Below, piece after piece: positions 8,594 to 50,047 of a stretch of DNA of 64,000 nucleotides. A program made the position numbers and the translations under genes. Positions within the stretch are counted from its first letter, which is position 1. Every line of letters starts with the position of its first letter. The stretch is from Bacilli bacterium (GTDB lineage: Bacteria > Bacillota_I > Bacilli_A > RFN20 > CAG-826). Where the stretch lies: assembly GCA_017940265.1 (NCBI GenBank), contig JAGAYY010000025.1, positions 64,711-128,710 on the forward strand, in the 5' to 3' direction. The notes under the pieces were generated by a model. The model ran no database searches. It saw only the letters and a program-made list of their open reading frames with translations, and was not told where the DNA came from.

Positions 8594-8855
8594 ATCTACG
8601 ATTATTGATCTAGGATTCAAAGAAATTATTGATAAAAGAATATGGTTCGAATCTCCAGAAGCTTATACCTTTTATGATTATGGTGAAGGATCAATTATGT
8701 TTAGGGTTAAAGAAGACCTCGGATATTGGTTCACCACTGGAAAGGACGGAACTTATATGATTGCTGGAACTAATGCCCAAAGATATCTGACTACCAATCC
8801 TTTCGAAATAATCCAAATAATTTCTTACCTCGTTCTCGTTGAGAGCGGGGATTAA
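8586..8855 (+). CDS. small-module protein, family B
   Basis: 89 aa; IIDLGFKEI...RIWFESPEAYTFYDY. Confidence 0.5.
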   Translation: MFRSTIIDLGFKEIIDKRIWFESPEAYTFYDYGEGSIMFRVKEDLGYWFTTGKDGTYMIAGTNAQRYLTTNPFEIIQIISYLVLVESGD

Positions 8856-9045
8856 TTTTTGTCCACTTTTTTTCGGCCAAGGGAACGAGGGAGTTAGCCC
8901 CTTAATGCCTATCTGCCGATATACGGCATTAAGGCCGCTGCGCGGAAGGCTAAAGCCATTGAACTCCTCCCCTATAAAATTTCCAATTTTTTGTGGAAAA
9001 AGCACTTGTATAGTATTTTCCCTATTTCTAGTTAATAAAATGGAC

Positions 9046-9093
9046 ATTTCACGCTTCTGAAGCCTTAATAACCTTATGAGTGATAATGATGGG
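9046..9093 (+). promoter_or_regulatory. copy of recurrent intergenic motif (ACGC..GAAGCcTTaAATAACCTTA..TGATGGG)
   Basis: Aligns with the copies at 14368, 29583 and 50001; lies about 80 nt upstream of the helicase-like gene start. Confidence 0.45.
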
Positions 9094-9171
9094 TTTAATG
9101 TTTTCCGATTCCCTTGGCTTTTTAGGTTTCGGAAGAACATTAAATTAATAACAATAAATTTATTAATTATT

Positions 9172-11199
9172 ATGTTAAAAAATTATTTTATACAAAGAGA
9201 TGGAAAGACAGTTATATATGTAGAGCGAGGTATTAGATATATGAGCGAATGGACTGATTTCAATCTCAATTTTTTCAATGGTCCTTACATTATAAATAAA
9301 CAAATCCCAGGATGTGGATTTACTGAGTATTGCTTAACCAATAATAATGATATAATATTAGCTTCTCCACGTAAAATACTTTTAGCTAATAAAGAAAATC
9401 AACATCCAGGTGAGATTTTTTATGCTAGGAATGAATTTGAAAAAGAAGATTTAGGTGTAGATAAAGATATATCTATTCCAAATAAACAGAGCTCTGAACC
9501 AGACGAAGAAAACGAAGCGAAAAGAATACATAATGAATTATGTGCTCTAGAGAAAATGGAAGAGAAATTAATGAATTATATTAGTTCTAGACTTATACAA
9601 AGAAAACCTATGAAACTTATTGTTACTTATGACTCTTTTCACCATGTAAGAGAAATTCTAGAGAAAAATTCAATCTTTAAACCTTTTAAGATAGTAGTCG
9701 ATGAATTCCAATCAGTTTTTGTAGACTCTAGATTTAAAGCTTCAACAGAATTTGGTTTTATGAATGAACTAAAACAGGTAAATAATGACATCTGTTTCGT
9801 TAGTGCTACTCCTATGATGGATAAATATCTTAAACAGATTGATTATTTTAAAAATTTACCTTATTATGAATTAGACTGGGGATTTCTAGATCCAGGTAGA
9901 GTTATTAAACCTGAGCTTAAAGTCCGTAAAATTAAATCTGTCTGTTTTGAAATTAAAAGAATTATTGAAGAATATCTAAAAGGGGAGTTTGCTATATTGG
10001 CTAATCCAGTTACTAGCGAATTAGTCCAGTCTACTGAGGCCGTATTTTACGTTAATTCTGTAAACGATATTCTTAAAGTTATTAAAACAATGGGACTTAC
10101 TCCAGATCAAGTTAATATTCTTTGTTCAGATACAACTATTAACCGCAGGAGAATACAGAGAAAATTAGGGAAGAAGTTTGAAATTGGATCGGTCCCATTA
10201 AGGGGTGAGCCTCATAAGATGTTTACTTTTTGTACTAGAACAGTTTACCTTGGAGCTGATTTCTATAGTACTAATGCTAGAAGTTTTATATTATCTGATG
10301 CTAACATAGATTCATTAGCTGTTGATATATCATTGGATCTTCCTCAAATTCTAGGAAGGCAAAGATTAGCTGAGAATCCCTGGAAAAATCATGCGGAATT
10401 CTATTTTAAAACTCTGGGAAAAGAGAAAGATATTACTGAGGATGCATTTAATTCTAGAGTAAAATCTAAATTAGAGTCTACTAATCATAGAATCTCTTTA
10501 TTTATGAAAGGAACTGATACGGAACAAAAAGCTATTATCGGAAACTTTCGAGATAGTATAGTATTAAGAAATTATTCAAATGACTATATCTCTATTAACT
10601 ATAACGGAGGAAGAGAAGTTCCAGTTCTTAATAATTTAGTATTAGTTGCTGAACAGAGAGCTTATGATATTCAACAAATAGATTATAAGGATAGATTTTC
10701 AGTTTTTAATACTATAAATGAGAGTGACGGTTTTAAAATGGATAAAATAAGTAGATTTGTTGAATACTTGAGAGATACTACTTATTCTATTCCAATTAGA
10801 TTAAAAGCCCTATGTGAAACTGATGAATTCTCTGAAGATGAAAAAAGAATTATAGCACAGCAAGCTTCAGAAAATTTTGATAAATACTATAATTTACTTG
10901 GTCCAGAAAGATGTAGAGCAGTTGGATATGATACTACTAGAATTCGAAAGGAAATTTCTGACATGATGATTTCCGAAGAAGATGTCAAAGTACTAATAAT
11001 GGAAAAGTTTTTGGTTGGAAAAAGGTATACTAATGTTTTTATTAAAGAAGAATTAGGAAAAATTTATTCTCAATTAAAACTAGCTAGATCACCAAAAGCT
11101 TCTGATATTGATCTGTACTTAGAAACTAAACCTGTTAAAATATTGGATCAAAATACCCAAAAACGGATACATGGTTTAGAAATTATAAAAATTAAATAA
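9172..11199 (+). CDS. SF2 helicase-like protein with non-canonical motif I, cassette copy 1
   Basis: Motifs PGCGFTEY (I, no Lys), ILASPRKILL (Ia), VVDEFQS (II), VSATP (III), QILGRQR (VI). Start chosen by alignment with the paralog at 45500. Confidence 0.7.
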   Translation: MLKNYFIQRDGKTVIYVERGIRYMSEWTDFNLNFFNGPYIINKQIPGCGFTEYCLTNNNDIILASPRKILLANKENQHPGEIFYARNEFEKEDLGVDKDISIPNKQSSEPDEENEAKRIHNELCALEKMEEKLMNYISSRLIQRKPMKLIVTYDSFHHVREILEKNSIFKPFKIVVDEFQSVFVDSRFKASTEFGFMNELKQVNNDICFVSATPMMDKYLKQIDYFKNLPYYELDWGFLDPGRVIKPELKVRKIKSVCFEIKRIIEEYLKGEFAILANPVTSELVQSTEAVFYVNSVNDILKVIKTMGLTPDQVNILCSDTTINRRRIQRKLGKKFEIGSVPLRGEPHKMFTFCTRTVYLGADFYSTNARSFILSDANIDSLAVDISLDLPQILGRQRLAENPWKNHAEFYFKTLGKEKDITEDAFNSRVKSKLESTNHRISLFMKGTDTEQKAIIGNFRDSIVLRNYSNDYISINYNGGREVPVLNNLVLVAEQRAYDIQQIDYKDRFSVFNTINESDGFKMDKISRFVEYLRDTTYSIPIRLKALCETDEFSEDEKRIIAQQASENFDKYYNLLGPERCRAVGYDTTRIRKEISDMMISEEDVKVLIMEKFLVGKRYTNVFIKEELGKIYSQLKLARSPKASDIDLYLETKPVKILDQNTQKRIHGLEIIKIK

Positions 11200-11200
11200 T

Positions 11201-12192
11201 ATGGTATATGTATTAAAATCTCCTATGTACAATAAGGATACTAATAAATATGGATTAGCAATTAAAATCGGTCATACTGATAATTGGAGTAATAGATTAG
11301 ATGCTTATTTACTACATAATCCAGCAATTCAAGTTATAAAAATCTATGAAAATGGGTCACTCGACGATGAAACTCTTCTAAAGAAGTATTTTAGACCGTA
11401 TCTAGTTCATAGAAACGAATGGTTTAAATATTGTAAAAGTATTTTAGATTTCTTTAATAAATATAATAAGATAGAAGATATTAGGCGCGAACTATCATTT
11501 ATTAAGTTAGAAGAAACACGACCTGCAAATAAAAGATATTTTTATAATTTTGCACGGAGTATAAAAAATATAATGGGATGTAAGGAAAATATCAAAACTA
11601 TTATTGACAATATGTTTAAAATCTGTAATTATAATGAAGAATCTGCATTAAAATATATTTGTGATAAATATCTAGATTATGCTCCGATTATCATTCAAGA
11701 CTATGAAGATGATAAATCTGTATTAACTGAGGAAATGATAGAGATGATAGCTTACTTACAAAATACTAGTATTAAATTTTCAGTGCGCCTAAAGACTTTA
11801 TGTGAATCTACTGAGTATTCTGATGAGGAAAAGAAAATTATATCTCAACAAGCCTCCGAAAATTTTGATAAGTTCTATAATATATTAGGCCCTTCCGATT
11901 GTAGAAGGTTTGGTTATAATATTACTCTTATGGAATCGGAGGTTAAGAATAGAGTTATAACCAAAGATGCAGATGTAATTAAAGAAAGTTTCCTAAGGAA
12001 TTTTAAGGTAGGAGATAGAAAACAAAATCTGACCTCAAACAAGAGATTCAGGCTATATATAATGAGCTAGGAATTTCTAAGAATGCTAAAGCGTCTGATC
12101 TTAATAACTATTTTGAATTGAAAGAAGTAAAAATAACGATTCCTGGAGTTAAGAAACAAGAGAATGGTTTTAAAATTCTAGGTCTAAAATGA
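11201..12192 (+). CDS. T5orf172 (GIY-YIG-like) domain protein, cassette copy 1, interrupted by a frameshift at 12019-12022
   Basis: N-terminus YVLKS...IKIGHTDNW..RLDAY...NEWFKY. The C-terminal module continues in the -1 frame to the TGA at 12190-12192 and then aligns without gaps to the paralog at 47547. Confidence 0.65.
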
Positions 12193-14336: not shown

Positions 14337-14366
14337 AAGAGATCGGTTTTAGAGCCGGTCTCTTTC
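14337..14366 (+). terminator. intrinsic terminator after groEL
   Basis: AAGAGATCGG-loop-CCGGTCTCTT stem followed by TTC. Confidence 0.6.
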
Positions 14367-14367
14367 T

Positions 14368-14414
14368 AAATTGATAAAACGCGCTTCTCCGGCCCTAAGA
14401 ACCTTACTAACGAT
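14368..14414 (+). promoter_or_regulatory. recurrent intergenic motif copy
   Basis: AAATTGATAAAACGCG...AAGAACCTTACTAACGAT, 15 nt before the ATG at 14429. Confidence 0.5.
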
Positions 14415-21739: not shown

Positions 21740-21790
21740 AACTGATTACATAAACTTTTTAAAAAGTAAAGTAGTCAGTTCTTCTTTTTC
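21740..21790 (+). terminator. long hairpin terminator
   Basis: AACTGATTAC...GTAGTCAGTT outer stem, ACTTTTT/AAAAAGT inner stem, followed by a T-rich tract. Confidence 0.55.
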
Positions 21791-21792
21791 TT

Positions 21793-21835
21793 CGTCAAAA
21801 CACGCTCCGGAAGGTCTGAGTTCTTTATATCTGGT
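21793..21835 (+). promoter_or_regulatory. divergent copy of the recurrent intergenic motif
   Basis: GTCAAAACACGCTCCGGAAGG... resembles the ATAAAACGCG..CCGGAGG copies; ends at the ATG at 21836. Confidence 0.3.
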
Positions 21836-22030
21836 ATGAAAAATAAAATATATATTTATAACAAAACCGGGAACCAATATCGTGTTCTCGGTGATGCAAA
21901 ATTCAAACACCCAGAGACTCGTGAATGGGTGAAGTGTATAATCTATCAATCTGTAGATACCGGTGAAACCTATGTCAGAGAAACCGGAGAATTTATGGAG
22001 AGATTTACAGAACAAATTAAATCTTTTTAA
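21836..22030 (+). CDS. DUF1653-like small protein
   Basis: IY.....G..Y.VLG.AKF..PET.EWV...IYQS...GETYVRE..EF fits the DUF1653 pattern. Confidence 0.55.
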   Translation: MKNKIYIYNKTGNQYRVLGDAKFKHPETREWVKCIIYQSVDTGETYVRETGEFMERFTEQIKSF

Positions 22031-22031
22031 T

Positions 22032-22961
22032 ATGCTAGTAATTAAAAGAGATGAAACAAGAGAGGCCTTTAATCTTGAAAAAATTCATAAGGCTGTAGAT
22101 GCAACTTTTAAAAGTTGTGGGTTACAAATTTCTCAAGGTGTGTTAGATGATTTAGATAAGTATGTTGAAGATAATCTAGATCTTGCTCGTGAGGAAGATA
22201 TCGAAGTTGATGAAATTCATAATGTTGTCGAACAATTCCTTATGAAAAATAATTTTTTCGATGTTTCTCGTGAATATATACTTTGTCGTCATCATAAGGC
22301 ACTAGAAAGAGCTGAACATGAACGTCTTACTAAGGGTATCTCTGAAAAACTTGCAGCGTCTAATGTACAAAACCAAAATGCTAATCTAGATGAACATTCA
22401 TTTGGTGGGCGTATCGGAGAGGCAAGCAGATATGTAACAAAAGACTTTGCTCTAAACTTCTGTATGAGCAAGATGTCAAAAAAGAATCATTTAAATAATG
22501 AAATTTATATTCATGATTTAGATTCTTATGCAGTTGGTATGCATAACTGTTTAACTATTCCATTTGATGATCTTCTTGCTAATGGATTTAACACTAGACA
22601 AGTAGATATAAGACCAGCAAATAGTATTAATACTGCGTTTCAATTAATTGCAGTAATTTTTCAAATTCAAAGCTTACAACAGTTTGGAGGGGTATCAGCA
22701 AGTCATCTTGACTGGACAATGGTACCTTATGTAAGAAAATCTTTTTATAAACATTATAAAGAAGGTTTAGAATTTATTCTAGATTATACAGAAGACCAAA
22801 TAGAAAATTTTGACATAGATGATACTATGTCAATTGAAAGTGATAAATATAAAAGTGAGCAGAAAGTATATGACTATGCTATGAAGCTTACAACAAAAGA
22901 GCTAAATCAGGCTGCAGAAGGAATATATCATAATCTCAATAGTCTGCAGTCACGTTCCGGT
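22032..22961 (+). CDS. nrdD: anaerobic ribonucleoside-triphosphate reductase, exon 1
   Basis: N-terminal ATP-cone-like VIKRDETREAFNLEKI. The NrdD-like sequence ends at ...NSLQSRSG and resumes at 24140. Confidence 0.8.
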
Positions 22962-24139
22962 AAAACAAAAGTTGCCGCACTAATTAGTTAGTGAAACATT
23001 CCGTAAAATCGGTGAAGACTAAAAATAAATTTTTTAAAATTATGAAACGAACTAGTCCAGATATTGAAAAACAGGTTATAAGTGAGTATAATAATGGAAA
23101 ATCTTTATCTAAGCTTGGAGAATCTTATGGATTAAGTCCAGTTACAGTACTTAATATTTTAAAAAGAAATAATATTCAAGTACGAACTAAAGGAGGAATT
23201 TATAAACTAGATGAAGACTCTATTATAAATAAATATAAATCTGGTAAATCATGTAGGGAAATTGCAGAAGAAAATGGTGTATGCCTAAAAACAATATGTA
23301 ATACTCTAGAAAAGAATAATATAGCCAGAGATAATATCTATCACAATAAAAGCCTAATTTCTAATTATTGGGAAGAAATCAATACATACGATAAGGCATA
23401 TTTCCTTGGGGTTTTTAATAACCGATGGAAATGTTTTTGGGAATAATGTTCGTTTGCAACTTTCTAGCAAAGATGAATATATTTTAAAAATATTTTCAGA
23501 TAAAACAAATAATAGCAATAATATTAACATTGACAAACGAGGGTTCTCATCTTTTAATATAAAACGAAAAGTATGGGTCGAAGATTTATCCAAGTATGGA
23601 GTTATTCCAAATAAAACAAAATCTGTATATCTACCTAGTATAAGAGAAGATCTAATGTCTCATTTACTTAGAGGTATTTTTTGATGGGGATGGTTGGATA
23701 ACATTAAAGGGTCATACTATTGGTCTATGTGGAAATGAATTATTAACTACACAGGTCAGAGATTATCTAGTTAGTACTTTGAGCGTATATAATGTAAAAG
23801 TTATCAAGAATAATGATAATCTTTGGAGTGTGTCTTGGGCTAGTAAAAAAGATATAAAATTAATAGGTGACTACCTCTATAAAGATAAAAATAATTGCTA
23901 TTTAGTTAGAAAGTTTAATAATTTTGAAAGTATTATTCATGTTGATACCGAGGTAAGTTCTGATATTTCGAAAGGATCAGAAACACCGTAGAGCATAGGA
24001 AGTGAATAAATATAATCTTCCCACGAGTATGGAACATCTTAGGATGAAAATATATGCCGAACTGGACCAGAATTAACTGGTTATAATGAGAGAAATCTCC
24101 AGATCTATAGGATAAAAAGCCTATAGGATAACACAATTG
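22962..24139 (+). mobile_element. group I-type intron interrupting nrdD (boundaries inferred)
   Basis: Exon 1 ends in T and the insert ends in G. Removing the insert joins LQSRSG to NQLPFTSLNYG in frame. The insert has stops in the exon frame and carries a homing-endonuclease ORF. Confidence 0.65.
23042..23991 (+). pseudogene. LAGLIDADG homing endonuclease with two N-terminal HTH repeats, broken by two frameshifts
   Basis: The motifs YFLG(F)LITDGNV and IFDGDGWITLKG become contiguous only if one G is removed from the run at 23408-23411 and one T from the run at 23677-23682. Confidence 0.65.
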
Positions 24140-25393
24140 AACCAACTTCCATTTACAAGTTTAAATTATGGAACTTGTACTCTTATTGAGGGTAAAATGG
24201 TAATCAAAGCTCTTTTAGAAGGATCTATTAAAGGTGTTGGAAAATTCCATAAAACACCAATCTTCCCTTGCGGTATTTTCCAATACATGAAAGGTGTAAA
24301 TGATAAACCAGGAACACCAAACTATGAACTATATCGTTTAGCTTTAGAGTCTACTTCCAAACGACTTTATCCCAATTATGCAAACGTAGATTGGAGCGGA
24401 AATGCCGGATATGATATAAATGATCCTAGAACTTATTTCAGCACAATGGGTTGTAGGACAGCTAATGGATATGATATAAATGGGCTCGGTCAGCTTAAAG
24501 ATGGAAGAGGAAATATCTGTCCTGTTACGATTATTCTTCCTACACTAGCTATGGAAGCCGATCGTGATGTTGAAAAATTTATGCGTCTCTTAGGAAGAAA
24601 AATTAAAGAGGCCAAAGATATGTTGATTGAAAGATTCAATTGGATTTGTGGCCAAAGTCCAGAGTCTGCACGTTTTATGTATGAGAATAATACTATGGCC
24701 GGTTATATTCCAGAAGAAGGAATAAGATCCGCACTTAAACATGGAACTATAGTAATTGGTCAACTTGGTTTAGCAGAAACTCTTCAATTATTAATAGGCA
24801 CTGATCATACTACCGAAGAAGGAATGAAATTAGCTAAGCGTATTGAATCTTTATTTAAGAAACGTTGTGCAGAATATAAAGAAGAGTATAAATTAAATTT
24901 TGGCGTTTATTTCACTCCAGCAGAAAATCTATGTTATACTGCGTTAAAGAAGTTTAGAACTAAATATGGGATAATCCCTAACGTTAGTGACAGAGAATTT
25001 TTCACCAATTCAATTCATGTTCCTGTTTGGAGAGATATGGATCCTTTTGAAAAGATTGATATTGAATCACAATTAACGGGTTATTCTTCTGCAGGATGTA
25101 TTACGTATGTAGAGCTTCCTTCAACTACAATGCACAATATCGATGCTCTTGAAACACTAGTAAATTATGCAATGGACCACGACATTCCTTATTTTGCTTG
25201 TAATCTTCCAAATGATATCTGTAATGGATGTGGGTATACTGGTGAATTCAATGATAAATGTCCTCAATGTGGTTCTACAGATATTAGTCAACTGAGACGA
25301 GTGACTGGGTATCTTACTGGTGATTATAAATCTGCATTTAACATAGGAAAACAAGACGAGGTTGAAAATAGAGTAAAACATATTAAAAACTAA
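24140..25393 (+). CDS. nrdD: anaerobic ribonucleoside-triphosphate reductase, exon 2
   Basis: NQLPFTSLNYGT, a C-terminal Cys4 ribbon CNGCGY...CPQCGS, and the glycyl-radical motif RRVTGYL. Confidence 0.85.
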   Translation, partial: NQLPFTSLNYGTCTLIEGKMVIKALLEGSIKGVGKFHKTPIFPCGIFQYMKGVNDKPGTPNYELYRLALESTSKRLYPNYANVDWSGNAGYDINDPRTYFSTMGCRTANGYDINGLGQLKDGRGNICPVTIILPTLAMEADRDVEKFMRLLGRKIKEAKDMLIERFNWICGQSPESARFMYENNTMAGYIPEEGIRSALKHGTIVIGQLGLAETLQLLIGTDHTTEEGMKLAKRIESLFKKRCAEYKEEYKLNFGVYFTPAENLCYTALKKFRTKYGIIPNVSDREFFTNSIHVPVWRDMDPFEKIDIESQLTGYSSAGCITYVELPSTTMHNIDALETLVNYAMDHDIPYFACNLPNDICNGCGYTGEFNDKCPQCGSTDISQLRRVTGYLTGDYKSAFNIGKQDEVENRVKHIKN

Positions 25394-28942: not shown

Positions 28943-29014
28943 TGGACCATGGTGTAATTGGTAACACGACAGTTTTTGGCGCTGTCTTTCTGAGTTCGAG
29001 CCTCGGTGGTCCAA
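28943..29014 (+). tRNA. tRNA-Gln (anticodon TTG)
   Basis: Hand-folded cloverleaf: acceptor TGGACCA/TGGTCCA, D arm GTGT/ACAC, anticodon loop TTTTGGC, T loop TTCGAGC. Confidence 0.8.
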
Positions 29015-29039
29015 CTATTTTTAACCAATAAAGATAATT

Positions 29040-29507
29040 ATGATAAAGACAATTACTGCCCCAGAGAGTTATGAAAACTTAGAGGGTAAATTTATTTTCT
29101 TAGCAGGAACTATTGATAATGGTGAGTCAGAGGATTGGCAGGCAGAGGTTTCCAAGTATGCAGAAGGATTAGAAACAACCGAAAACGTTTATATCTTAAA
29201 TCCTCGCAGGAATGATTGGAATCCTAACGCTACCGAAAAAGATATTGAGGATCAGATTAAATGGGAGCTCGGTGCCTTGAAAAGAAGTGAGGTTATTATT
29301 ATGAATATACTTGAATCTTCTAAATCACCAATCTCATTACTAGAAATGGGACTGTTTGGTAAGGATAATCCAGGGTTCTATGTATTCTGTGGACCCGGCT
29401 TCTATCGTTATACAAACGTTAGAGTTACTGCTGAAGAGTTTGGAATTAAACACTATTCGGATTATACTACAGATGATATTAAGAAGTTAATCAAATTAAT
29501 AGTTTAA
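29040..29507 (+). CDS. nucleoside 2-deoxyribosyltransferase-like protein
   Basis: FLAGTIDNG.SEDWQ...NPRR.DW...QIKWE...PISLLEMG; paralog of 60715..61284. Confidence 0.5.
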   Translation: MIKTITAPESYENLEGKFIFLAGTIDNGESEDWQAEVSKYAEGLETTENVYILNPRRNDWNPNATEKDIEDQIKWELGALKRSEVIIMNILESSKSPISLLEMGLFGKDNPGFYVFCGPGFYRYTNVRVTAEEFGIKHYSDYTTDDIKKLIKLIV

Positions 29508-29522
29508 TTTCCTTAAAAATAG

Positions 29523-29583
29523 AGAAGACATTAGGTACCGCGTCGTGTTGTTGCGGAGGGAAGGGCCTAGTGTTCTTCTTTTA
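29523..29583 (+). terminator. hairpin terminator
   Basis: AGAAGACATTAGG...CCTAGTGTTCTTCT imperfect long stem followed by TTTT. Confidence 0.55.
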
Positions 29584-29632
29584 AATTGATAAAACGCGTT
29601 CCGGAGGCTTTGAATACCTTACTGATGATGGG
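29583..29632 (+). promoter_or_regulatory. recurrent intergenic motif copy
   Basis: AAATTGATAAAACGCGTTCCGGAGGCTTTGAATACCTTACTGATGATGG. Confidence 0.5.
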
Positions 29633-29638
29633 TGATGA

Positions 29639-29666
29639 TAGCTTTTGAAATTTATTCAAAAGCTAT
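29639..29666 (+). promoter_or_regulatory. perfect 11-bp hairpin in the HNH gene leader
   Basis: TAGCTTTTGAA-atttat-TTCAAAAGCTA, 20 nt before the ATG at 29686. Confidence 0.6.
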
Positions 29667-29685
29667 ATAATTAAAAATTCTAATC

Positions 29686-30153
29686 ATGGAAAACAAAATT
29701 ATGTCATTTTCTGATCAAGAGTTTATAGAAATTATAAACTCTAATATAGGATGGAATCAGATTACTAAAGCTCTTGGGTATGAAACTAAACCCTCTAGTT
29801 TTACTATTAATAAAATTAAAGCTAGATGTGAAAGTTTAGGAATTTCACCAAAGTTAAATAAATTATCCCCAGTTGATTCAGAAACAAAAGATGGCTTATT
29901 AGGTAAACGGAAAAACTATCAAAGTTACAGAACAGCAATTAGAAAAAGAGCTGAAAAAGTATTTTCTAATTCAGGAAAACCATTAAAATGCGCTATTTGC
30001 GGGTATGATCTTTACGTAGAGATCGCTCATATTAAAGCAGTATCTGATTTTCCTGGAGATACGTTAATTTCAGAAATAAATTCTGAAGATAACCTTATTG
30101 CATTATGTCCTAATCATCATTGGGAATATGATCATGGAATTTTAAAATTATAA
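29686..30153 (+). CDS. HNH homing-type endonuclease
   Basis: CAICGY...EIAHIKA...NLIALCPNHHWEYDHG (HNH with Cys pairs). Confidence 0.8.
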   Translation: MENKIMSFSDQEFIEIINSNIGWNQITKALGYETKPSSFTINKIKARCESLGISPKLNKLSPVDSETKDGLLGKRKNYQSYRTAIRKRAEKVFSNSGKPLKCAICGYDLYVEIAHIKAVSDFPGDTLISEINSEDNLIALCPNHHWEYDHGILKL

Positions 30154-30167
30154 TTTAAAGATTAATA

Positions 30168-30189
30168 GTTCGAATCTGTCTCCCGCTAC
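30168..30189 (+). other. tRNA 3'-end-like fragment
   Basis: AGTTCGAATCTGTCTCCCGCTA looks like T loop + T stem 3' arm + acceptor 3' arm + discriminator, but no matching 5' half lies nearby. Confidence 0.35.
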
Positions 30190-30191
30190 AT

Positions 30192-30392
30192 ATGAATAAA
30201 AAACTTATAGAACTTTTACAGAAAAATCCTGAAGCAAATCTTTTTATAGATTGTGGCCAAGGAGATAAATTTCAGGTAATAGGAATAACTGAAAATGAAA
30301 ATAGTGGATCCATTAGCCTTCACATTCACCGAGGAAGTGTTAGGTGGATAGAAATGGATGGAAAACACCCAATTAAACTTAGTACAGAATGA
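30192..30392 (+). CDS. hypothetical protein
   Basis: 66-aa ORF. Confidence 0.45.
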   Translation: MNKKLIELLQKNPEANLFIDCGQGDKFQVIGITENENSGSISLHIHRGSVRWIEMDGKHPIKLSTE

Positions 30393-30631
30393 AATTAGAA
30401 CTTACACGAGGATGTATTTGTGATTCATTAACAGTCGATGATGAAGAAGAAATAGATCTTACAGATGACGTTAGGAAGGAAGTACTTCGAAAAATTTTTG
30501 AAGCTCTAAGACCAGAAGATCTTAATTATGTACTTCAAGAATTAATTCCATGCTTTGGAGAATATGAATGTGATCCAGAACCTTGTGAATGTTGTGGAGA
30601 TTTTGTTGAAACCTATAAATGGGAAATATAG
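30389..30631 (+). CDS. hypothetical Cys-rich acidic protein
   Basis: 80-aa ORF; C-terminal CFGEYECDPEPCECCGDF. Confidence 0.5.
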   Translation: MKLELTRGCICDSLTVDDEEEIDLTDDVRKEVLRKIFEALRPEDLNYVLQELIPCFGEYECDPEPCECCGDFVETYKWEI

Positions 30632-30948
30632 TTATGGATATTACAGGAATTTTTTCAGAGTCATTTTGGTATATGGCTCCAATTTTAATGTCGATCACAG
30701 TTACTATTACTGGTGCAATTAATGGTAGATTTAATATCACTAATGGAATTTGGCCCCAGATAGTATCTTGGATTGTAGGCTCTGTACTTTCAGTAGGAGC
30801 TTGGCTACTTAATTTTGTAACTATGGGTCAACCTGTTTGGCTCGGTGTTATTATGTTATGTGTAGTTGTTGGTCTGTCTAGTAATGGTATCTATGATATT
30901 CCAACTATTCAGAAGCTTATCAAACAACTATTCTATAAAGAACAATAA
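30619..30948 (+). CDS. small membrane protein (three predicted TM helices; holin-like size)
   Basis: 109 aa with three hydrophobic stretches; no enzymatic motif. Confidence 0.5.
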   Translation: MGNIVMDITGIFSESFWYMAPILMSITVTITGAINGRFNITNGIWPQIVSWIVGSVLSVGAWLLNFVTMGQPVWLGVIMLCVVVGLSSNGIYDIPTIQKLIKQLFYKEQ

Positions 30949-31184
30949 AAAGGGTTTATATTACCGACTTCAAACCAGAAACCCTGAACCTTCCTGCCTG
31001 GAATCTTCTTTCATTACTATCTCGCCTATCATCCAGGTTAAACAAAAAGGTGACAGACCATTGGGTAATTCCATAGGAGCGCTGTTAGGAAGTCAAAATT
31101 GTAAGAGGTCGCGCCTCAACGTAACGTATCTCGTCCCTGAGAAATATTCTCAAACGTTGATCTCAATCGTAAGTGAGTATTTTG

Positions 31185-31216
31185 GTAAGTTAACGGTTAT
31201 AAAAACTTACATTTTT
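31185..31216 (+). other. hairpin plus T-run immediately upstream of tRNA-Thr
   Basis: GTAAGTT-loop-AACTTAC followed by ATTTTT. Confidence 0.35.
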
Positions 31217-31289
31217 GCCTCCTTAGCTCAATTGGTAGAGCGCGTGATTTGTAATCTCGAGGTTGTTGGTTCGATCCCGACAGGAGGCT
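31217..31289 (+). tRNA. tRNA-Thr (anticodon TGT)
   Basis: Acceptor GCCTCCT/AGGAGGC, D arm GCTC/GAGC, loop TTTGTAA, T loop TTCGATC; one T-T mismatch in the anticodon stem. Confidence 0.75.
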
Positions 31290-31294
31290 CGAAA

Positions 31295-31368
31295 GGGCTT
31301 GTAGTTCAGTTGATTAGAACGTCTGTTTTGCATACAGAAGGTCCCCCGTTTGATCCGGGGCAGGTCCA
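31295..31368 (+). tRNA. tRNA-Ala (anticodon TGC)
   Basis: Anticodon stem TCTGT/ACAGA, loop TTTGCAT, T arm CCCCG/CGGGG, and an acceptor with a G3:U70 pair. Confidence 0.8.
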
Positions 31369-31498
31369 CACATGCCAAGGTAGAGCGATGCAAGCCAGTA
31401 TCTTGTGCTAGTCTTAGCTATTTTTGATGAAGAAACAGAGTAAATTCTCTGTAAAATAGTAGAAATCCTCTCAACTCAGAAAAAGACTTTTAGTAGCA

Positions 31499-31532
31499 AA
31501 TTAATATAAAAGAGGCCTATTTTATATTAATT
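31499..31532. repeat. 34-nt near-perfect palindrome in a tRNA spacer
   Basis: AATTAATATAAAA-gaggccta-TTTTATATTAATT (13-bp arms). Confidence 0.8.
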
Positions 31533-31655
31533 GGAAGAAGGATGGATTTTATAACCGTAAGGTGAATTTAAGGTAGCGTGCTGAGTTGTCCGAAAACTAA
31601 AAATTGATGTCAAGTAGGACGAGTTTTAGAATTTCTCACCAAAAAATTCTACTAA

Positions 31656-31728
31656 GGATGAGTGGCAGACGTGGTGTATGCATCGGACTGAAAATCCGAC
31701 TAAGGTGATTCAACTTCATCCTCATCCA
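31656..31728 (+). tRNA. tRNA-Phe (anticodon GAA), atypical D arm
   Basis: Acceptor GGATGAG/CTCATCC, anticodon stem TCGGA/TCCGA, loop CTGAAAA, T loop TTCAACT. Confidence 0.65.
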
Positions 31729-31971
31729 CAAGGTTATAGACGAAACTGACCTAGGTAATTAAGTTTCTTGGTATCTGGAATAATTGGCAATTATAAACAG
31801 AGCAATAGTAGGAGTAATTCTTAATGAATAATACAATAGTTAGACGTAGAGCGGTTTTTCGTTTCAGGATGGTTGCTAGTTTCCTGGAGAACCTCCTATC
31901 CAGGGAGTGTGAGTTTGGTAAGCCGGTCAGAACAAAAATACTGGGAAACTCTACAAAAAATTAGCATCTAA

Positions 31972-32051
31972 GCTCCTATGGTGGAATTGGTAGACACGAT
32001 AGATTTAGGATCTATTGCGAAAGCGTGCAGATTCGAGTTCTGCTAGGAGTA
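31972..32051 (+). tRNA. tRNA-Leu (anticodon TAG), long variable arm
   Basis: Anticodon stem ATAGA/TCTAT, loop TTTAGGA, variable arm TGCGAAAGCGT, T arm GCAGA-TTCGAGT-TCTGC. Confidence 0.8.
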
Positions 32052-32055
32052 CTGA

Positions 32056-32143
32056 GGATAGGTGACAGAGTGATTTATTGTAGCGGTCTTGAAAACCGCC
32101 GAACGTTAGTAGCGTTCCGTAGGTTTGAATCCTACCCTATCCG
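32056..32143 (+). tRNA. tRNA-Ser (anticodon TGA), long variable arm
   Basis: Acceptor GGATAGG/CCTATCC, anticodon stem GCGGT/ACCGC, loop CTTGAAA, long variable arm, T arm GTAGG/CCTAC. Confidence 0.8.
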
Positions 32144-32337
32144 CGAGACCAAAGTTCGAGAAAGGTAACCGAAGTGCCTGAAGAACGAATGCTGTTAATG
32201 ATGTACTCGGTATTATAATCATAGTGAACAGCGGCGCCAGATAAGGGAATACTGGCAAAAGAAGAGTGCCAAGCATTTAATGCACCGGAGCAGGGTGACC
32301 TGATTTCCTTAGGTTCCAGATCTCTTCTATTTTATTT

Positions 32338-32409
32338 GCTTGTGTAGCTCAGAGGTAGAGCAAATGGCTGTTAACCATTAGGTCGGGATATCATAATTCT
32401 CCACAAGCG
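32338..32409 (+). tRNA. tRNA-Asn-like (anticodon GTT) with a non-canonical T arm
   Basis: Acceptor GCTTGTG/CACAAGC, D arm GCTC/GAGC, anticodon stem AATGG/CCATT, loop CTGTTAA. The T loop ATCATAA lacks TTC. Confidence 0.5.
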
Positions 32410-45051: not shown

Positions 45052-45066
45052 AGGTTTTATTTCTTA

Positions 45067-45113
45067 AAATCATATACCTAGTTATCATAGATAACATAAT
45101 ATATGATTTTTTT
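45067..45113 (+). terminator. intrinsic terminator (nested hairpin plus T-run)
   Basis: AAATCATATA...TATATGATTT outer stem, GTTATC/GATAAC inner stem, followed by TTTTTTT. Confidence 0.7.
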
Positions 45114-45344
45114 ATTTCATCTTGGGTCGCCCACCTAGCCCCTCCTCACTTCGTTCGTCGTTGCCCGACCCAAGACTCTGTTCAGGAGACCTGAACAAGA
45201 GGATATCATTATCTCTCCTGAGGTTTTTTAACCGAAGGGAGAGACATAATCAGGGGACCTCTAAGGGACCCTGATATGACATAGATTCTAACGAAGTAGT
45301 AAGGGCTTGTCCCGAACGTTAAGAATCTTTTTGTATATAATAAG

Positions 45345-45401
45345 ACGCACACTTTTTTCTCTTATTAGGAAAAATGAAATTTTGGAAGAAAAAGTGTGCG
45401 T
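45345..45401 (+). promoter_or_regulatory. 13-bp inverted repeat upstream of cassette 2
   Basis: ACGCACACTTTTT...AAAAAGTGTGCGT separated by about 30 nt, followed by TTTTGC; about 100 nt before the ATG at 45500. Confidence 0.55.
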
Positions 45402-45499
45402 TTTGCTCTTAAAGAGGGCTCAAATCCTAATATATGAATGACAAGAAGCTCTCAACTGTAATTTTGAGAGCTCAGAACAATTTAAAAATAAAAACAAAA

Positions 45500-47545
45500 A
45501 TGGAAAAACATAACATTATTGTACCAAGAGGAATTAGATATATTAGTGATTGGAAAGAATATAATCTTAGAGACTTTCCTTTTCCTCACATCTTAGATAA
45601 AGTATTAACTGGGTGTGGTTATACTGAATACTGTCTCAGAAATGATCAGGATCTAATTCTATGTAGTCCACGAAGAATGCTTTTAGAAAATAAAGAACAG
45701 CAACATCGTGGAGAAATTTTTTATGCTCGAAACGAAGCATGTGATGAAGAATTTGATAGAGTTTTTACAGAAAGCGAAGGAAAAAAGAAAGCAAATCAAA
45801 AAATAATTTATTACACTGATAATACTAGTAGTACATCTTCAATAATTCTAAAGTTAAAACAAGATGTAATTTATTATTATAATAAGAGAAAATCCGAAGG
45901 TAAACCAGTTAAAATTATTGTTACTTATGATTCTTTTCGCCATGTTAAAGAAACTCTATTAAGTTTTAATCTTTTCCAAAATTTTCAGGTAGTAGTCGAT
46001 GAATTTCAATCGGTTCTAGTAGATGTAAAATTTAAATCCAATACCGAATTAGAATTATTAAATCAGCTCTTAGGAATTCAGAGGGTATGTTTTGTATCCG
46101 CTACTCCCATGTTAGATAAATATCTAGGTAGACTAGATGAATTCAAAGAATTGCCTTATTATAAGTTAGATTGGGAAACTAAGGATCCTGGACGTATTAT
46201 TAATCCTAACCTTCAAGTGCATAAAACTGACAGTATTTTTAAAGATATTACTAAAATAATAACAAAATATCAAAATAATCAATTTGATGCTGAATCTTGG
46301 GTGGATGATAGTGGGTTGATTCATGAAACTCAATCTAGAGAAGCAGTCATATATGTTAATTCAGTTAAGACTATTTGTAGTGTAATTACTAGATTTGGAT
46401 TGACTTTAGATAATACTAATATTCTATGTGCAAGAACACCAGATAATGAAGAAAAACTTCGAAAATCATTTAACGAAGTCCAAAAAAGATCTGGACTTGA
46501 TAAAAAATATAAGAAAGAAGATCAAATCATAGGATATATTCCAAGAAAAGGTGAGCCTCATAAGATGTTTACCTTCTGTACTCGAACTGTATACTTAGGG
46601 GCGGATTTCTATTCTACTTGTGCTAAGACTTATATTTTTAGCGACAGTAATATAGAATGTCTATCTGTTGATATTTCCCTAGATCTTCCTCAAATTCTGG
46701 GAAGACAGAGATTAGATGAAAATCCTTGGAAAAATTCAGCTGATCTCTATATTAAAAGTACTTTGGCTAAATTGTCTAGAGAAGATTTTGATAGAGAATT
46801 AAAACAGAAAATAGAAATTACCAATGATCTTCTTCTTTCTTATAATACAACTCCAACTAATAAAGCAAAACATTCGTTAGCTTCTGCTTATGAAGACAGA
46901 GTTAAGAGCCTATCTTATAAAAAAGATTATGTAGCAGTTAACCATCATGCAGGTTCAGATCTTATCCCGGTATTCAATAACCTAATGCTAGTAGCAGACG
47001 AAAGATCTTTCGATATTCAACAGATAGATTATAAAGATAGAGTTTCTGTGTTTAATACCTTGAAGAATAAAGGATTTATTACAATTGATGTTGATAAAGA
47101 ATTAGAAACCTTTAACAGTATTCCTTATTATCATGATAAGATGAGATACGTTTGCCAGCTTAGTAATACTCTAGACTCTATACATTTTGATCTATTTCTT
47201 AATTCTATCTCTAAAGATTATAAAAATTATTACGTTGTATTAGGTTCAGAAGGATGCAGTGCTTGTAAATTTAGGAGAAAAGAAATGGAAATAGAATATC
47301 AAAGGATAATAGGAAATCAAAGAGTAGATTTTCATTTAGAATTAGATAAACAATTTAAAGTGGGAGAAAGGTATCTATTTTCTGATATAAAGAAAATCCT
47401 GACTGAAATTTATAATTTAGTTGGATATCAACAAACTCCAAAAGCAACTGATCTTGAGGAGTGGTATGTTCTCAAATCTTGTCAGATTACTAATCCAATA
47501 ACAAAGAAAAGAGAACATGGTTATAAAATATTAGCTAAGAAATGA
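45500..47545 (+). CDS. SF2 helicase-like protein with non-canonical motif I, cassette copy 2
   Basis: TGCGYTEY, ILCSPRRMLL, VVDEFQS, VSATP, QILGRQR; start by alignment with copy 1 (the ORF opens at 45434). Confidence 0.7.
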   Translation: MEKHNIIVPRGIRYISDWKEYNLRDFPFPHILDKVLTGCGYTEYCLRNDQDLILCSPRRMLLENKEQQHRGEIFYARNEACDEEFDRVFTESEGKKKANQKIIYYTDNTSSTSSIILKLKQDVIYYYNKRKSEGKPVKIIVTYDSFRHVKETLLSFNLFQNFQVVVDEFQSVLVDVKFKSNTELELLNQLLGIQRVCFVSATPMLDKYLGRLDEFKELPYYKLDWETKDPGRIINPNLQVHKTDSIFKDITKIITKYQNNQFDAESWVDDSGLIHETQSREAVIYVNSVKTICSVITRFGLTLDNTNILCARTPDNEEKLRKSFNEVQKRSGLDKKYKKEDQIIGYIPRKGEPHKMFTFCTRTVYLGADFYSTCAKTYIFSDSNIECLSVDISLDLPQILGRQRLDENPWKNSADLYIKSTLAKLSREDFDRELKQKIEITNDLLLSYNTTPTNKAKHSLASAYEDRVKSLSYKKDYVAVNHHAGSDLIPVFNNLMLVADERSFDIQQIDYKDRVSVFNTLKNKGFITIDVDKELETFNSIPYYHDKMRYVCQLSNTLDSIHFDLFLNSISKDYKNYYVVLGSEGCSACKFRRKEMEIEYQRIIGNQRVDFHLELDKQFKVGERYLFSDIKKILTEIYNLVGYQQTPKATDLEEWYVLKSCQITNPITKKREHGYKILAKK

Positions 47546-47546
47546 T

Positions 47547-48545
47547 ATGATTTATTTAATTAAATCCGCCGCATTTAAAGAGGGTGGAGGATATGAAACT
47601 ATTTTAAAAATTGGATATGCAAGTGAGAATTCTATGAGATATAGAGAAACTGCTTATCGTACTGAAAATCCAACTTTTAAAATTATTCAAACGATCCATG
47701 GAGGAGACTTACAAGATGAAACAAATCTACATTATAAGTTTTGTCATCTCCTGAGATATGGAAGAGAATGGTTTAGTGAGGATGAAGAGATTTATGAATT
47801 TTTCAGATCTCACACTACAAAAGAATCATTACAAGATCTAGAAACACATTATTCAATACGAAAACAAAAAATTATAGACTCTGAAGAAAAACTTAGGCCT
47901 AGTAGACTTAGTTGGATGATAGGGAAAGTTTTAGAAACAAAATCAGGGATTGATTATATTTTATCTCTAGAAGAATTGATAAATACATTAGGATCTTTAA
48001 AATCTGATAAAGATAAACAAGAATTCTTAGTATTAACTTATCCAGATATAAATTTTGAGCAACAAGCCATAACATCAGACGGAGTATTAGGTGCTCTCAA
48101 TACCTTCAATTCTTTCCCGACTTTTGCAGAGAAACTTAGATACATACATGAAGTTGAAGTTACTCTAGGATCTGAACAAATGCCGCTGTTCCTAGATTCA
48201 ATTCCTCTTAAATTTAAAAATTATTATCTGGTGTTTGGTGATACTAGGCTTAAGGCACTGGAGTATCGAGAAATAGAAATTACTAGAGAATGGGAAAGGA
48301 TTAAAAATAACTCAGAACTAGAAAGAGATCTGATTTCAGCTATTGAATCCGTTTTCAAGGTTGGTGAAAGATATACTAAGGCTCAGATCAAAGAAAAACT
48401 TCGAGAAATCTATCAGGAACTAGGATATAAACAGTCGCCAAAAGCTACAGACCTAGAAAAATGGTTTATATTAAAGTCTATTATGTTTACAAATAAAGAA
48501 ACAGGTAAACGTGATGCTGGTTTTGAAATCTTAAGCCGGAAATAA
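47547..48545 (+). CDS. T5orf172 (GIY-YIG-like) domain protein, cassette copy 2
   Basis: IYLIKS...LKIGYASENSMRYRE...YGREWFSE; its C-terminal 140 aa are homologous to the C-terminus of 45500..47545. Confidence 0.7.
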   Translation: MIYLIKSAAFKEGGGYETILKIGYASENSMRYRETAYRTENPTFKIIQTIHGGDLQDETNLHYKFCHLLRYGREWFSEDEEIYEFFRSHTTKESLQDLETHYSIRKQKIIDSEEKLRPSRLSWMIGKVLETKSGIDYILSLEELINTLGSLKSDKDKQEFLVLTYPDINFEQQAITSDGVLGALNTFNSFPTFAEKLRYIHEVEVTLGSEQMPLFLDSIPLKFKNYYLVFGDTRLKALEYREIEITREWERIKNNSELERDLISAIESVFKVGERYTKAQIKEKLREIYQELGYKQSPKATDLEKWFILKSIMFTNKETGKRDAGFEILSRK

Positions 48546-48551
48546 AATAAA

Positions 48552-48580
48552 AAGATATAGAAAATATAATTCTATATCTT
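48552..48580. terminator. bidirectional terminator at a convergent junction
   Basis: AAGATATAGAA-7 nt-TTCTATATCTT flanked by A-rich and T-rich tracts. Confidence 0.8.
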
Positions 48581-48593
48581 TTCTTTTTCTTTC

Positions 48594-49969: not shown

Positions 49970-50047
49970 CATATATAAGGAATACAGAGTCCACTTTTTC
50001 TAAATCGATAAAACGCGTACCAGAAGCTTTGAATACCTTACTGATGG
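49970..50047 (+). promoter_or_regulatory. composite intergenic motif in a divergent region
   Basis: CATATATAAGG (49970-49980) followed by AAATCGATAAAACGCGTACCAGAAGCTTTGAATACCTTACTGATGGG. Confidence 0.5.

Follow-up and report, generated by a model that had tools for sequence, protein, structure and literature searches.

We describe here two copies of a two-gene cassette in a window of 64,000 nucleotides (positions 64,711 to 128,710 of contig JAGAYY010000025.1, assembly GCA_017940265.1), which is apparently part of the genome of a large phage of low G+C content (~35%). Each cassette consists of a large helicase-like gene, here called L, followed by a small T5orf172-type gene, here called S, the numbers 1 and 2 denoting the cassette (copy). 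Cassette 2 (45434-48545) has the same layout as cassette 1, and each is preceded by its own non-coding leader of 0.3-0.45 kb (Table 1). A preliminary description of the window had placed L1 at 9172-11199, and this open reading frame (ORF) is indeed found there on the + strand; it is open from 9076, with the start at 9172 favoured by homologues and by the gene calls in sister assemblies, just as homologues and gene calls favour a start of L2 at 45500 (681 aa). S starts one to a few bases after the stop codon of L, and in cassette 1, as had been noticed, a single base separates the two (TAA at 11197-11199, ATG at 11201). Over their full length, L1 and L2 are 42% identical, and their C-terminal modules are only about 27% identical. 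Both cassettes lie in local dips of G+C content, the lowest 2-kb bins being at 0.29-0.30 vs 0.32-0.39 in the adjoining bins.

L had been described as a helicase-like motor, and of this label the first part is supported by the predicted fold. L2 is predicted to contain two RecA-like domains in the arrangement of superfamily 2 (SF2) helicases: its AlphaFold2 model (predicted local distance difference test score, pLDDT, of 77) retrieves SF2 proteins in Foldseek with a probability of 1.0 and E values of 1e-8 to 1e-6, the top matches being Hjm/Hel308, WRN/BLM/RecQ, Brr2 and the origin-binding protein UL9 of herpes simplex virus 1 (HSV-1; structures 9hgi and 9hgj), and the viral library BFVD adds several entries named 'replication origin-binding protein'. 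The sequence motifs pointed out beforehand (ILASPRKILL, VVDEFQS, VSATP and QILGRQR, for motifs Ia, II, III and VI) are all present, and the cores of the last three are invariant or nearly so in 119 relatives (DE[FW]QS in 114, SATP and G[RK]QR in all 119) and invariant in an alignment of 20 L sequences (A2), which is also where the residues of motif Ia were examined. The term 'motor', on the other hand, is unproven because the Walker-A lysine is absent, and a canonical motif I, which had not been listed beforehand either, is not found. All 119 homologues read K-x3-G-C-G-[FY]-T and none reads G-x-G-K-[ST], so that F or Y occupies the position of the lysine and an invariant Lys lies upstream; in A2 the invariant P-loop residues are K56, G60, C61, G62, T64 and E65 (L2 numbering), and distant phage relatives likewise lack the lysine (GVGGTT, GCGATH). 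The layout of L, in which the SF2 helicase-like core is followed by a helical region after motif VI and then by a C-terminal module of ~150 aa, suggests by its architecture a site-specific DNA-binding SF2 ATPase. In one independent assembly, the strain variant of 45434-47545 (L177, 7949-9993) has L2 called as two pieces, of 478 aa and 101 aa, with a gap; this is either a strain-level disruption or an assembly error, and if it is a true disruption, L2 would look dispensable.

The possibility that L would map onto a known replicative or primosomal helicase family, raised at the outset, did not materialize. L proteins have no family match in Pfam, PHROGs, NCBIfam or PADLOC, the last giving no family at E<=1 for any of the four cassette proteins, and profile searches of the PDB with L and with the module gave nothing significant; the best PDB sequence match, a plexin RBD-like stretch at E=0.08, was treated as chance. 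The likeness to UL9 is at the level of the fold only, with no match to Herpes_ori_bp or an equivalent in Pfam and no PDB sequence match. The family is nevertheless very common: the protein collection yields more than 5,300 matches, all of them devoid of Pfam domains, and IMG/VR yields 536 relatives. The genes reside mostly on viral contigs of 100-400 kb, often in several copies per contig; in jumbo phages each copy is diverged and has its own leader, and copy number and positions differ between related phages. Among 185,579 cellular species genomes only 14 loci were found, largely on contigs of metagenome-assembled genomes, a rarity that speaks against L as a cellular or prophage gene. L is thus a large, uncharacterised and essentially phage-borne family.

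The N-terminus of S1 had been likened to T5orf172/GIY-YIG proteins, and it does score above the Pfam cut-offs for MUG113 (PF13455; 27.8 vs 22.3 bits) and T5orf172 (PF10544; 20.7 vs 20). S2 itself matches neither Pfam family; among the 24 aligned members of the S family (alignment A1), 18 match MUG113 and 15 match T5orf172. Invariant in A1 are Y3, K21-I-G-Y24, R33 and E74-W-F, at which positions S1 carries VYVL, IKIGHT, NRLDAY and NEWF, and the catalytic-type motifs are present in 115-119 of 120 homologues. By mapping onto GIY-YIG enzymes, we take Y3, R33 and E74 to be the catalytic Tyr, Arg and Glu. Judged by its sequence, S is a T5orf172/MUG113-type member of the GIY-YIG nuclease superfamily with a putative nuclease activity.

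The two genes share a C-terminal module, and the resemblance noted at the start is highly significant. L1 530-675 is 41% identical to residues 183-330 of frame-repaired S1 (BLASTP, E=1e-35), the modules of L2 and S2 are 45% identical (E=1e-37), and the family profiles of L and S, compared with hhalign, have a single region in common, the last 157 columns (E=6.6e-49). Since both the pairwise and the profile-profile matches are confined to the C-terminus, the module is real and sharply bounded. At the DNA level, the module of L1 is 70% identical to 11753-11892, a part of the S1 module (repeat D4). In the AlphaFold2 models, the module comprises a helical subdomain and a terminal beta-alpha-alpha-beta-beta unit of ~60 aa with the signature F-x-V-G-x-R-Y...I-Y...P-K-A-x-D, a unit that one S relative (P0130) carries twice. 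The predicted terminal unit looks like a winged helix; Foldseek with the whole S model gave no significant match, only weak winged-helix proteins at E>0.5. By analogy, we infer that the module recognises a specific DNA site; because no fold or sequence match is significant, such binding stays putative. A module-profile search of 1.84 billion representative proteins yielded 1,434 clusters, and we classed the 136 new proteins among the best 150. These comprise T5orf172 plus module (61), L core plus module (37), module-only fragments (27), T5orf172 plus distal L core plus module (5), T5orf172 plus two or three modules (3), and ~100 unexplained N-terminal residues plus module (3). Among the proteins classed, the module is therefore essentially confined to the L and S families.

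S1 is not intact. The preliminary description had read it as one ORF to 12192, but its frame runs into a stop codon at 12068-12070, and from ~12019 to a second stop at 12190-12192 the homologous tail (KTKSDLKQEIQAIYNELG...GLK, then stop) is read in the -1 frame. The A-run at 12019-12022 is one A short; once this A is restored, S1 can be aligned with S2 and L1 from end to end without a further indel. As now read, S1 ends prematurely, its T5orf172 domain (aa 1-95) and linker being followed by no more than the first two-thirds of the module, and the displaced tail would encode the putative terminal winged-helix-like subdomain. The 60-mer that spans the frameshift is identical in 8 independent assemblies from different samples, so that the shift is real and not an assembly error, and these 8 are every recovered assembly of the window phage. 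Programmed frameshifting was considered less likely, as the run has four A, there is no slippery heptamer and one missing A explains the shift; on the sequence pattern, we prefer a mutational frameshift. This fits a nuclease gene in decay, as a decaying homing gene would be.

The relation between the two genes in other genomes was surveyed with custom hidden Markov models (HMMs) for the L core, the S N-terminal domain and the module. The pair is widespread beyond the window, and a full L gene lies immediately upstream on the same strand in 69 of 69 sampled S loci. The converse does not hold, which speaks against an obligate two-gene system: an S-type gene is found at 37 of 80 L-seeded loci, and at the other 43 (54%) none lies directly downstream. 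Among the 80, 30 have a module-bearing S-type gene directly after L, 6 have a separate 134-aa T5orf172 gene only, 0.15-1.2 kb downstream, and 1 has an extra module fragment. S thus depends on L, and not L on S. The stand-alone 134-aa T5orf172 protein, which lacks the module and lies 0.15-2 kb downstream of L loci in related jumbo phages (L008 9988-10392; L117 7223-7627; also L130, L149 and L158), is a separate, conserved small member of the nuclease family.

More direct signs of mobility come from three pairs of jumbo-phage loci (L135/L133, L138/L115 and L140/L127), in which the L cores are 99.4-100% identical and S is present in one member only. The indel is of ~1.03 kb and runs from the L stop codon to just after the S stop; its flanks are 92-99% identical, and L and S end in nearly identical stretches of ~20 nt. 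In these pairs, S shows the presence/absence pattern of a free-standing homing gene. In L140/L127, the L core is 99.6% identical and the C-terminal module of L only 65-85% at the DNA level, a mosaic that resembles a co-conversion tract and is compatible with co-conversion, although it is no proof of it. Furthermore, S occurs in variants: there are tandem S genes, S genes with a longer captured piece of L (T5orf172 plus L residues ~399 to the end, from after motif VI) and S genes with duplicated terminal subdomains. These variants point to repeated recombination between the 3' parts of L and T5orf172 genes.

The modules of the two genes vary together to some extent. Across 57 distinct cassettes, the S module shares an average identity of 62% with the module of its own L and of 44% with those of other L, and in the window the corresponding values are 42-45% and 27-31%. 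Synonymous codon identity between the L and S copies of the module is mostly near random expectation; this argues against recent gene conversion as the cause of the similarity and suggests that most L/S module pairs are old copies.

Distant relatives of L place these observations in a wider setting. DAL_143 of Psychrobacter phage D'Alembert (annotated 'DEAD-like helicase') and Phab24_id070 of Acinetobacter phage Phab24 are true homologues, 22-24% identical to L over >90% of its length, with a lysine-less P-loop and the same C-terminal module; each occurs in one copy per phage, unlike L, and follows ~1 kb of non-coding DNA at a switch in the direction of transcription. Unusually long non-coding stretches of 0.9-1.3 kb (L165 3578-4925, L166 3962-4892 and L190 2620-3943) precede distant homologues of L, and may have an origin or regulatory role. 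Downstream of the D'Alembert homologue lies a gene annotated as an HNH endonuclease, in which our own reading of the sequence finds an AP2-like domain, and downstream of the Phab24 homologue lies a classical GIY-YIG gene; neither nuclease shares the L module, in which they differ from S. At L195, a GIY-YIG gene starts 3 nt after L, and in other distant lineages a KilAC/ANT-type antirepressor follows the L homologue. With HNH-AP2, GIY-YIG and T5orf172 genes all found there, the 3' flank of L is a recurrent landing site for homing-type nucleases, and only the T5orf172 lineage took over the L module. As a separate observation, the antirepressor at L190 (6098-6865) and its homologues in L184-L193, viral contigs of ~38 kb, are mosaic, with a KilAC/ANT C-terminal domain and interchangeable N-terminal halves, and have a ParA-like ATPase nearby, which hints at plasmid-like prophages.

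Taken together, we propose that S is a free-standing parasite of L genes of the homing-endonuclease type, which uses a copied L recognition module to find L loci, and we put the probability of this at roughly 0.6. The selfish homing-type element that the preliminary description had considered for the pair would thus be the small gene, which fits it both by its precise presence and absence between near-identical phages and by the frameshift of copy 1. First, the captured module would bring the S nuclease to a DNA site recognised by L-type modules, within or beside an S-less L locus. The break would then be repaired from the S-bearing genome during co-infection, and S would be copied in, sometimes along with the adjoining C-terminus of L. 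Cassette 1 may represent a late stage of this life cycle, in which S1 has become fixed in the sampled strain assemblies and has lost its terminal subdomain. The presence of other homing-type nucleases at the same position after L in distant phages also favours this proposal.

Several observations weigh against it. First of all, both cassettes are present in all strain assemblies of the window phage, with no empty site there, and mobility is therefore deduced from other jumbo phages; in a more distant relative, with a GroEL that is 66% identical, cassette 1 is missing between these landmarks, in a region that is variable as a whole. Second, the precise indel with its ~20 nt of boundary similarity could equally well be a deletion. 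Third, S is apparently under purifying selection in many lineages, which could mean domestication. Fourth, the L core and the N-terminal nuclease domain of S co-diverge (Spearman 0.78), which fits long-term co-inheritance as much as frequent homing. Within single IMG/VR genomes, moreover, the S module is 62% identical to its own L vs 56% to a paralogous L, and the order is sometimes reversed; this preference is so weak that modules must have been exchanged among cassettes, and a strict matching of specificity inside each cassette holds only loosely. Finally, the winged-helix assignment draws only on secondary structure and non-significant fold matches, no iterons or repeated motifs are seen near the cassettes, and the DNA target of S, its cleavage and DNA binding by the module are all putative.

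The pair had been thought to match no known kind of system, but there is a precedent. Odn (gp88 of vibriophage ICP1), a T5orf172 nuclease, has a DNA-binding domain that shares 42% identity with the RepA_N domain of the initiator of the satellite PLE, and it cuts the RepA-bound origin (PMC8263062), and T5orf172 genes at large are modular free-standing homing genes that swap DNA-binding domains, with Odn-like chimeras having arisen repeatedly (PMC10448857). S resembles Odn and the nucleases of coliphages Inny, Muut and Mt1B1_P17 in that a T5orf172 domain is fused to a recognition domain copied from a site-binding protein, in its similar identity to the donor (42% for Odn, 41-82% for S vs L), and in that variation of the borrowed domain follows that of the donor family (PMC8263062, PMC10448857). 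In the case of S, the fusion of T5orf172 with the module and the homology to L are seen directly, whereas DNA binding by the donor and an initiator role of L are putative. S differs from Odn in that its donor is the adjoining upstream gene of the same phage and not the initiator of a hostile satellite, in that it has captured a C-terminal module of a new type instead of RepA_N, and in that the donor is an SF2 helicase-like protein, the target and activity of S being putative. The principle is thus not categorically new, and S can be likened to a cis version of the ICP1 Odn/RepA theme of chimeric T5orf172 nucleases.

With free-standing homing endonuclease genes (HEGs) such as the T5orf172 genes of ICP1 and the Seg genes of T4, S shares the form of a small nuclease gene wedged between other genes, the modular 'beads on a string' build, presence and absence with precise borders, domain shuffling, tandem copies and decay by frameshift (PMC10448857). 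It is distinct from them in being tied to a single host gene family, from which it takes its recognition module, and homing itself is inferred for S. Moreover, 87% of the surveyed T5orf172 HEGs use CapR, DUF723 or DUF4397 zinc-finger domains (PMC10448857), whereas the S family uses none of these.

The L/S feature is real, widespread and unannotated in the libraries searched. The L family is a clear gap in jumbo-phage annotation, being very common and multi-copy, with no library match and an unusual catalytic site. S shows a concrete way for a homing nuclease to gain or renew its specificity, by copying the recognition module of its neighbour, and extends the Odn principle from conflict between genomes to parasitism within a genome; such capture may also account for gene ends that are mosaic and evolve fast in the vicinity of nuclease genes. 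Should the module be a compact DNA binder with sequence specificity, its recognition code could be read with the help of naturally matched nuclease/binder pairs. A more far-reaching version, which we offer only tentatively and hold to be doubtful in its full extent, is that such 'neighbour-capture' is a general route, by which a T5orf172 gene parasitises a multi-copy family and copies its site-recognition module, both then diversifying together, and that L constitutes a new class of SF2 ATPases, site-specific and with a lysine-less P-loop, spreading as semi-autonomous modules (perhaps auxiliary origins or recombination hot-spots) through metagenomic jumbo-phage genomes.

An unlikely alternative, in our estimate, is that L and S together form a domesticated, Odn-like two-component weapon against a competing phage or satellite, in which the shared module would direct both to the origin or another specific site of the foreign element, S would cut, and L, as an ATPase or translocase, would displace the foreign initiator or process the break. 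The chimeric logic would be that of Odn and the analogous coliphage nucleases (PMC8263062, PMC10448857), an arms race would be expected to produce the hypervariability of the C-terminal modules and their shuffling between cassettes, several cassettes with different modules occur per genome, and the position of the cassettes in G+C dips, each behind its own leader, would also suit such a role. A two-component weapon sits poorly, however, with the 54% of sampled L genes that have no S-type gene directly downstream, and with an S that is polymorphic between near-identical phages and frameshifted in copy 1. PADLOC gives no match, and the module derives from the adjoining gene of the phage itself, not from a foreign replicon. 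A module-bearing satellite did not turn up, although no dedicated search was made for one; among the proteins classed, the module is essentially limited to L/S architectures, and L is rare in cellular genomes.

UL9 and the origin-binding proteins of giant viruses combine an SF2 helicase with a C-terminal sequence-specific DNA-binding domain. L resembles them in that an SF2 core is followed by a C-terminal, putative DNA-recognition region, with origin-binding proteins among its fold matches. This leads to another alternative, which we regard as quite unlikely, namely that L is an origin-binding SF2 protein and S a site-specific nickase that is brought to the same origin and primes rolling-circle or recombination-dependent replication, the several cassettes being several origins in a 400-kb genome. 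Apart from the fold likeness to HSV-1 UL9 and the giant-virus proteins, it can point to the 0.9-1.3 kb of non-coding DNA before distant L homologues (with the transcription switch in D'Alembert and Phab24), to the structured leader upstream of L2, to the DNA-metabolism genes around the cassettes, and to the recombination role that Aravind's group proposed for T5orf172 (PMC7824862). L, however, has no sequence similarity to UL9, and its fold match to UL9 is no stronger than those to Hel308, RecQ and other generic SF2 helicases. L also lacks the Walker-A lysine, and is multi-copy and variable in number and position between related phages instead of being a core replication gene in single copy; one assembly has L2 interrupted, S is dispensable and decaying, and iterons were not found.

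It is very improbable that S, instead of being a nuclease, regulates or antagonises L, with its module competing for the site or partner of L and its T5orf172 domain serving for DNA binding or interaction only, even though tight stop-start coupling would fix the L:S expression ratio and T5orf172 was reportedly first described, by Iyer et al. in 2002, as a DNA-binding module of viral regulators. The expected catalytic residues (Tyr, Arg and Glu-Trp-Phe) are invariant in 24 sequences and their motifs present in 115-119 of 120, the indel behaviour of S is typical of homing genes, and characterised T5orf172 proteins such as Odn are nucleases (PMC8263062).

Table 1. Features of the two cassettes and the intervening tRNA genes (positions in the window)
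Feature	Position	Strand	Details
Cassette 1 leader	8856..9171	+	Non-coding; follows terminator-like hairpin (8828-8850) ending upstream gene
G+C-rich hairpin in cassette 1 leader	~8899-8941		
L1, SF2 helicase-like, 675 aa	9172..11199	+	Lcore HMM E=1e-216
Non-canonical P-loop of L1, K43-QIP-G-C-G-F-T51	9298..9324	+	
C-terminal module of L1, aa 530-675	10759..11196	+	BLASTP to S1, profile comparison, AlphaFold2 secondary structure
S1, putative T5orf172-type nuclease gene as now read, 289 aa	11201..12070	+	SN HMM E=1.5e-20
Displaced S1 tail (KTKSDLKQEIQAIYNELGISKNAKASDLNNYFELKEVKITIPGVKKQENGFKILGLK, then stop), -1 frame	12019..12192	+	SC HMM positions 93-147, E=5e-15
tRNA gene cluster, between both cassettes	28943-32409		Seven by Rfam; six by ARAGORN (Gln, Thr, Ala, Phe, Leu, Ser)
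Cassette 2 leader	45052..45499	+	A+T-rich palindrome/terminator 45066-45110, then structured G+C-rich region
L2, second large-protein copy	45434..47545	+	703 aa from 45434; AlphaFold2 pLDDT 77
S2, intact putative T5orf172-type nuclease with captured module, 332 aa	47547..48545	+	AlphaFold2 pLDDT 88

The two leaders differ in their predicted structure. In cassette 1, the leader folds no more stably than shuffled sequences do (z=-1.2), and no repeats were found in it; a minus-strand ORF at 8691-9140 is probably spurious. The cassette 2 leader, on the other hand, is strongly structured (z=-5.9, with 0 of 100 shuffles equally stable) and contains a 54-nt G+C-rich hairpin at 45121-45174. It shares 84% identity over 145 nt with the leader that precedes a paralogous large gene (L001 5540-5700, the P0002 locus), where the hairpin segment recurs without visible mismatch and the stem arms are found exactly, even though the large proteins behind the two leaders are only 67% identical. 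The hairpin is confined to the lineage of the window phage and may serve as a regulatory RNA or as a binding site for a protein, or may be a small repeat element. Rfam gave no match in the leader regions, at gathering score or at E<=1, which speaks against a known RNA. Around the cassettes and upstream of the distant homologues, no convincing iterons or repeated binding sites were found, and the short A+T-rich two-copy matches seen there were judged to be chance. On the 3' side of S2, a hairpin with a T-run can be read by eye at ~48551-48590.

The window further holds GroES/GroEL-like genes, NrdD/NrdG and a weak NAD-ligase-like match, and the cassettes are found among genes of DNA metabolism (ligase, NrdD/G, SbcCD-like and a 5'-3' exonuclease). 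The gene for the anaerobic ribonucleotide reductase, nrdD, is itself split into two ORFs (21963-22991 and 24137-25393), exactly at position 154/155 of the Pfam NRDD profile, and the region 21963-25393 forms a further G+C dip (0.296). The gap of 1.15 kb holds a double helix-turn-helix ORF (22991-23446) and remnants of frameshifted ORFs, in which a LAGLIDADG-like motif, GFLITDGNV, can be discerned by eye and for which Pfam gives no match; no group I intron was found in the split at the Rfam gathering score. The interruption looks like a decayed homing-endonuclease or intron insertion. Finally, a 53-nt motif (CTTCTTTTAAATTGATAAAACGCG...CCGGAGG...) is present in four copies of 66-100% identity, at 14360-14412, 21781-21833, 29575-29627 and 49994-50046; the copies that were compared with the ORF lists lie between ORFs, and the motif may be a phage-specific promoter or regulatory element.

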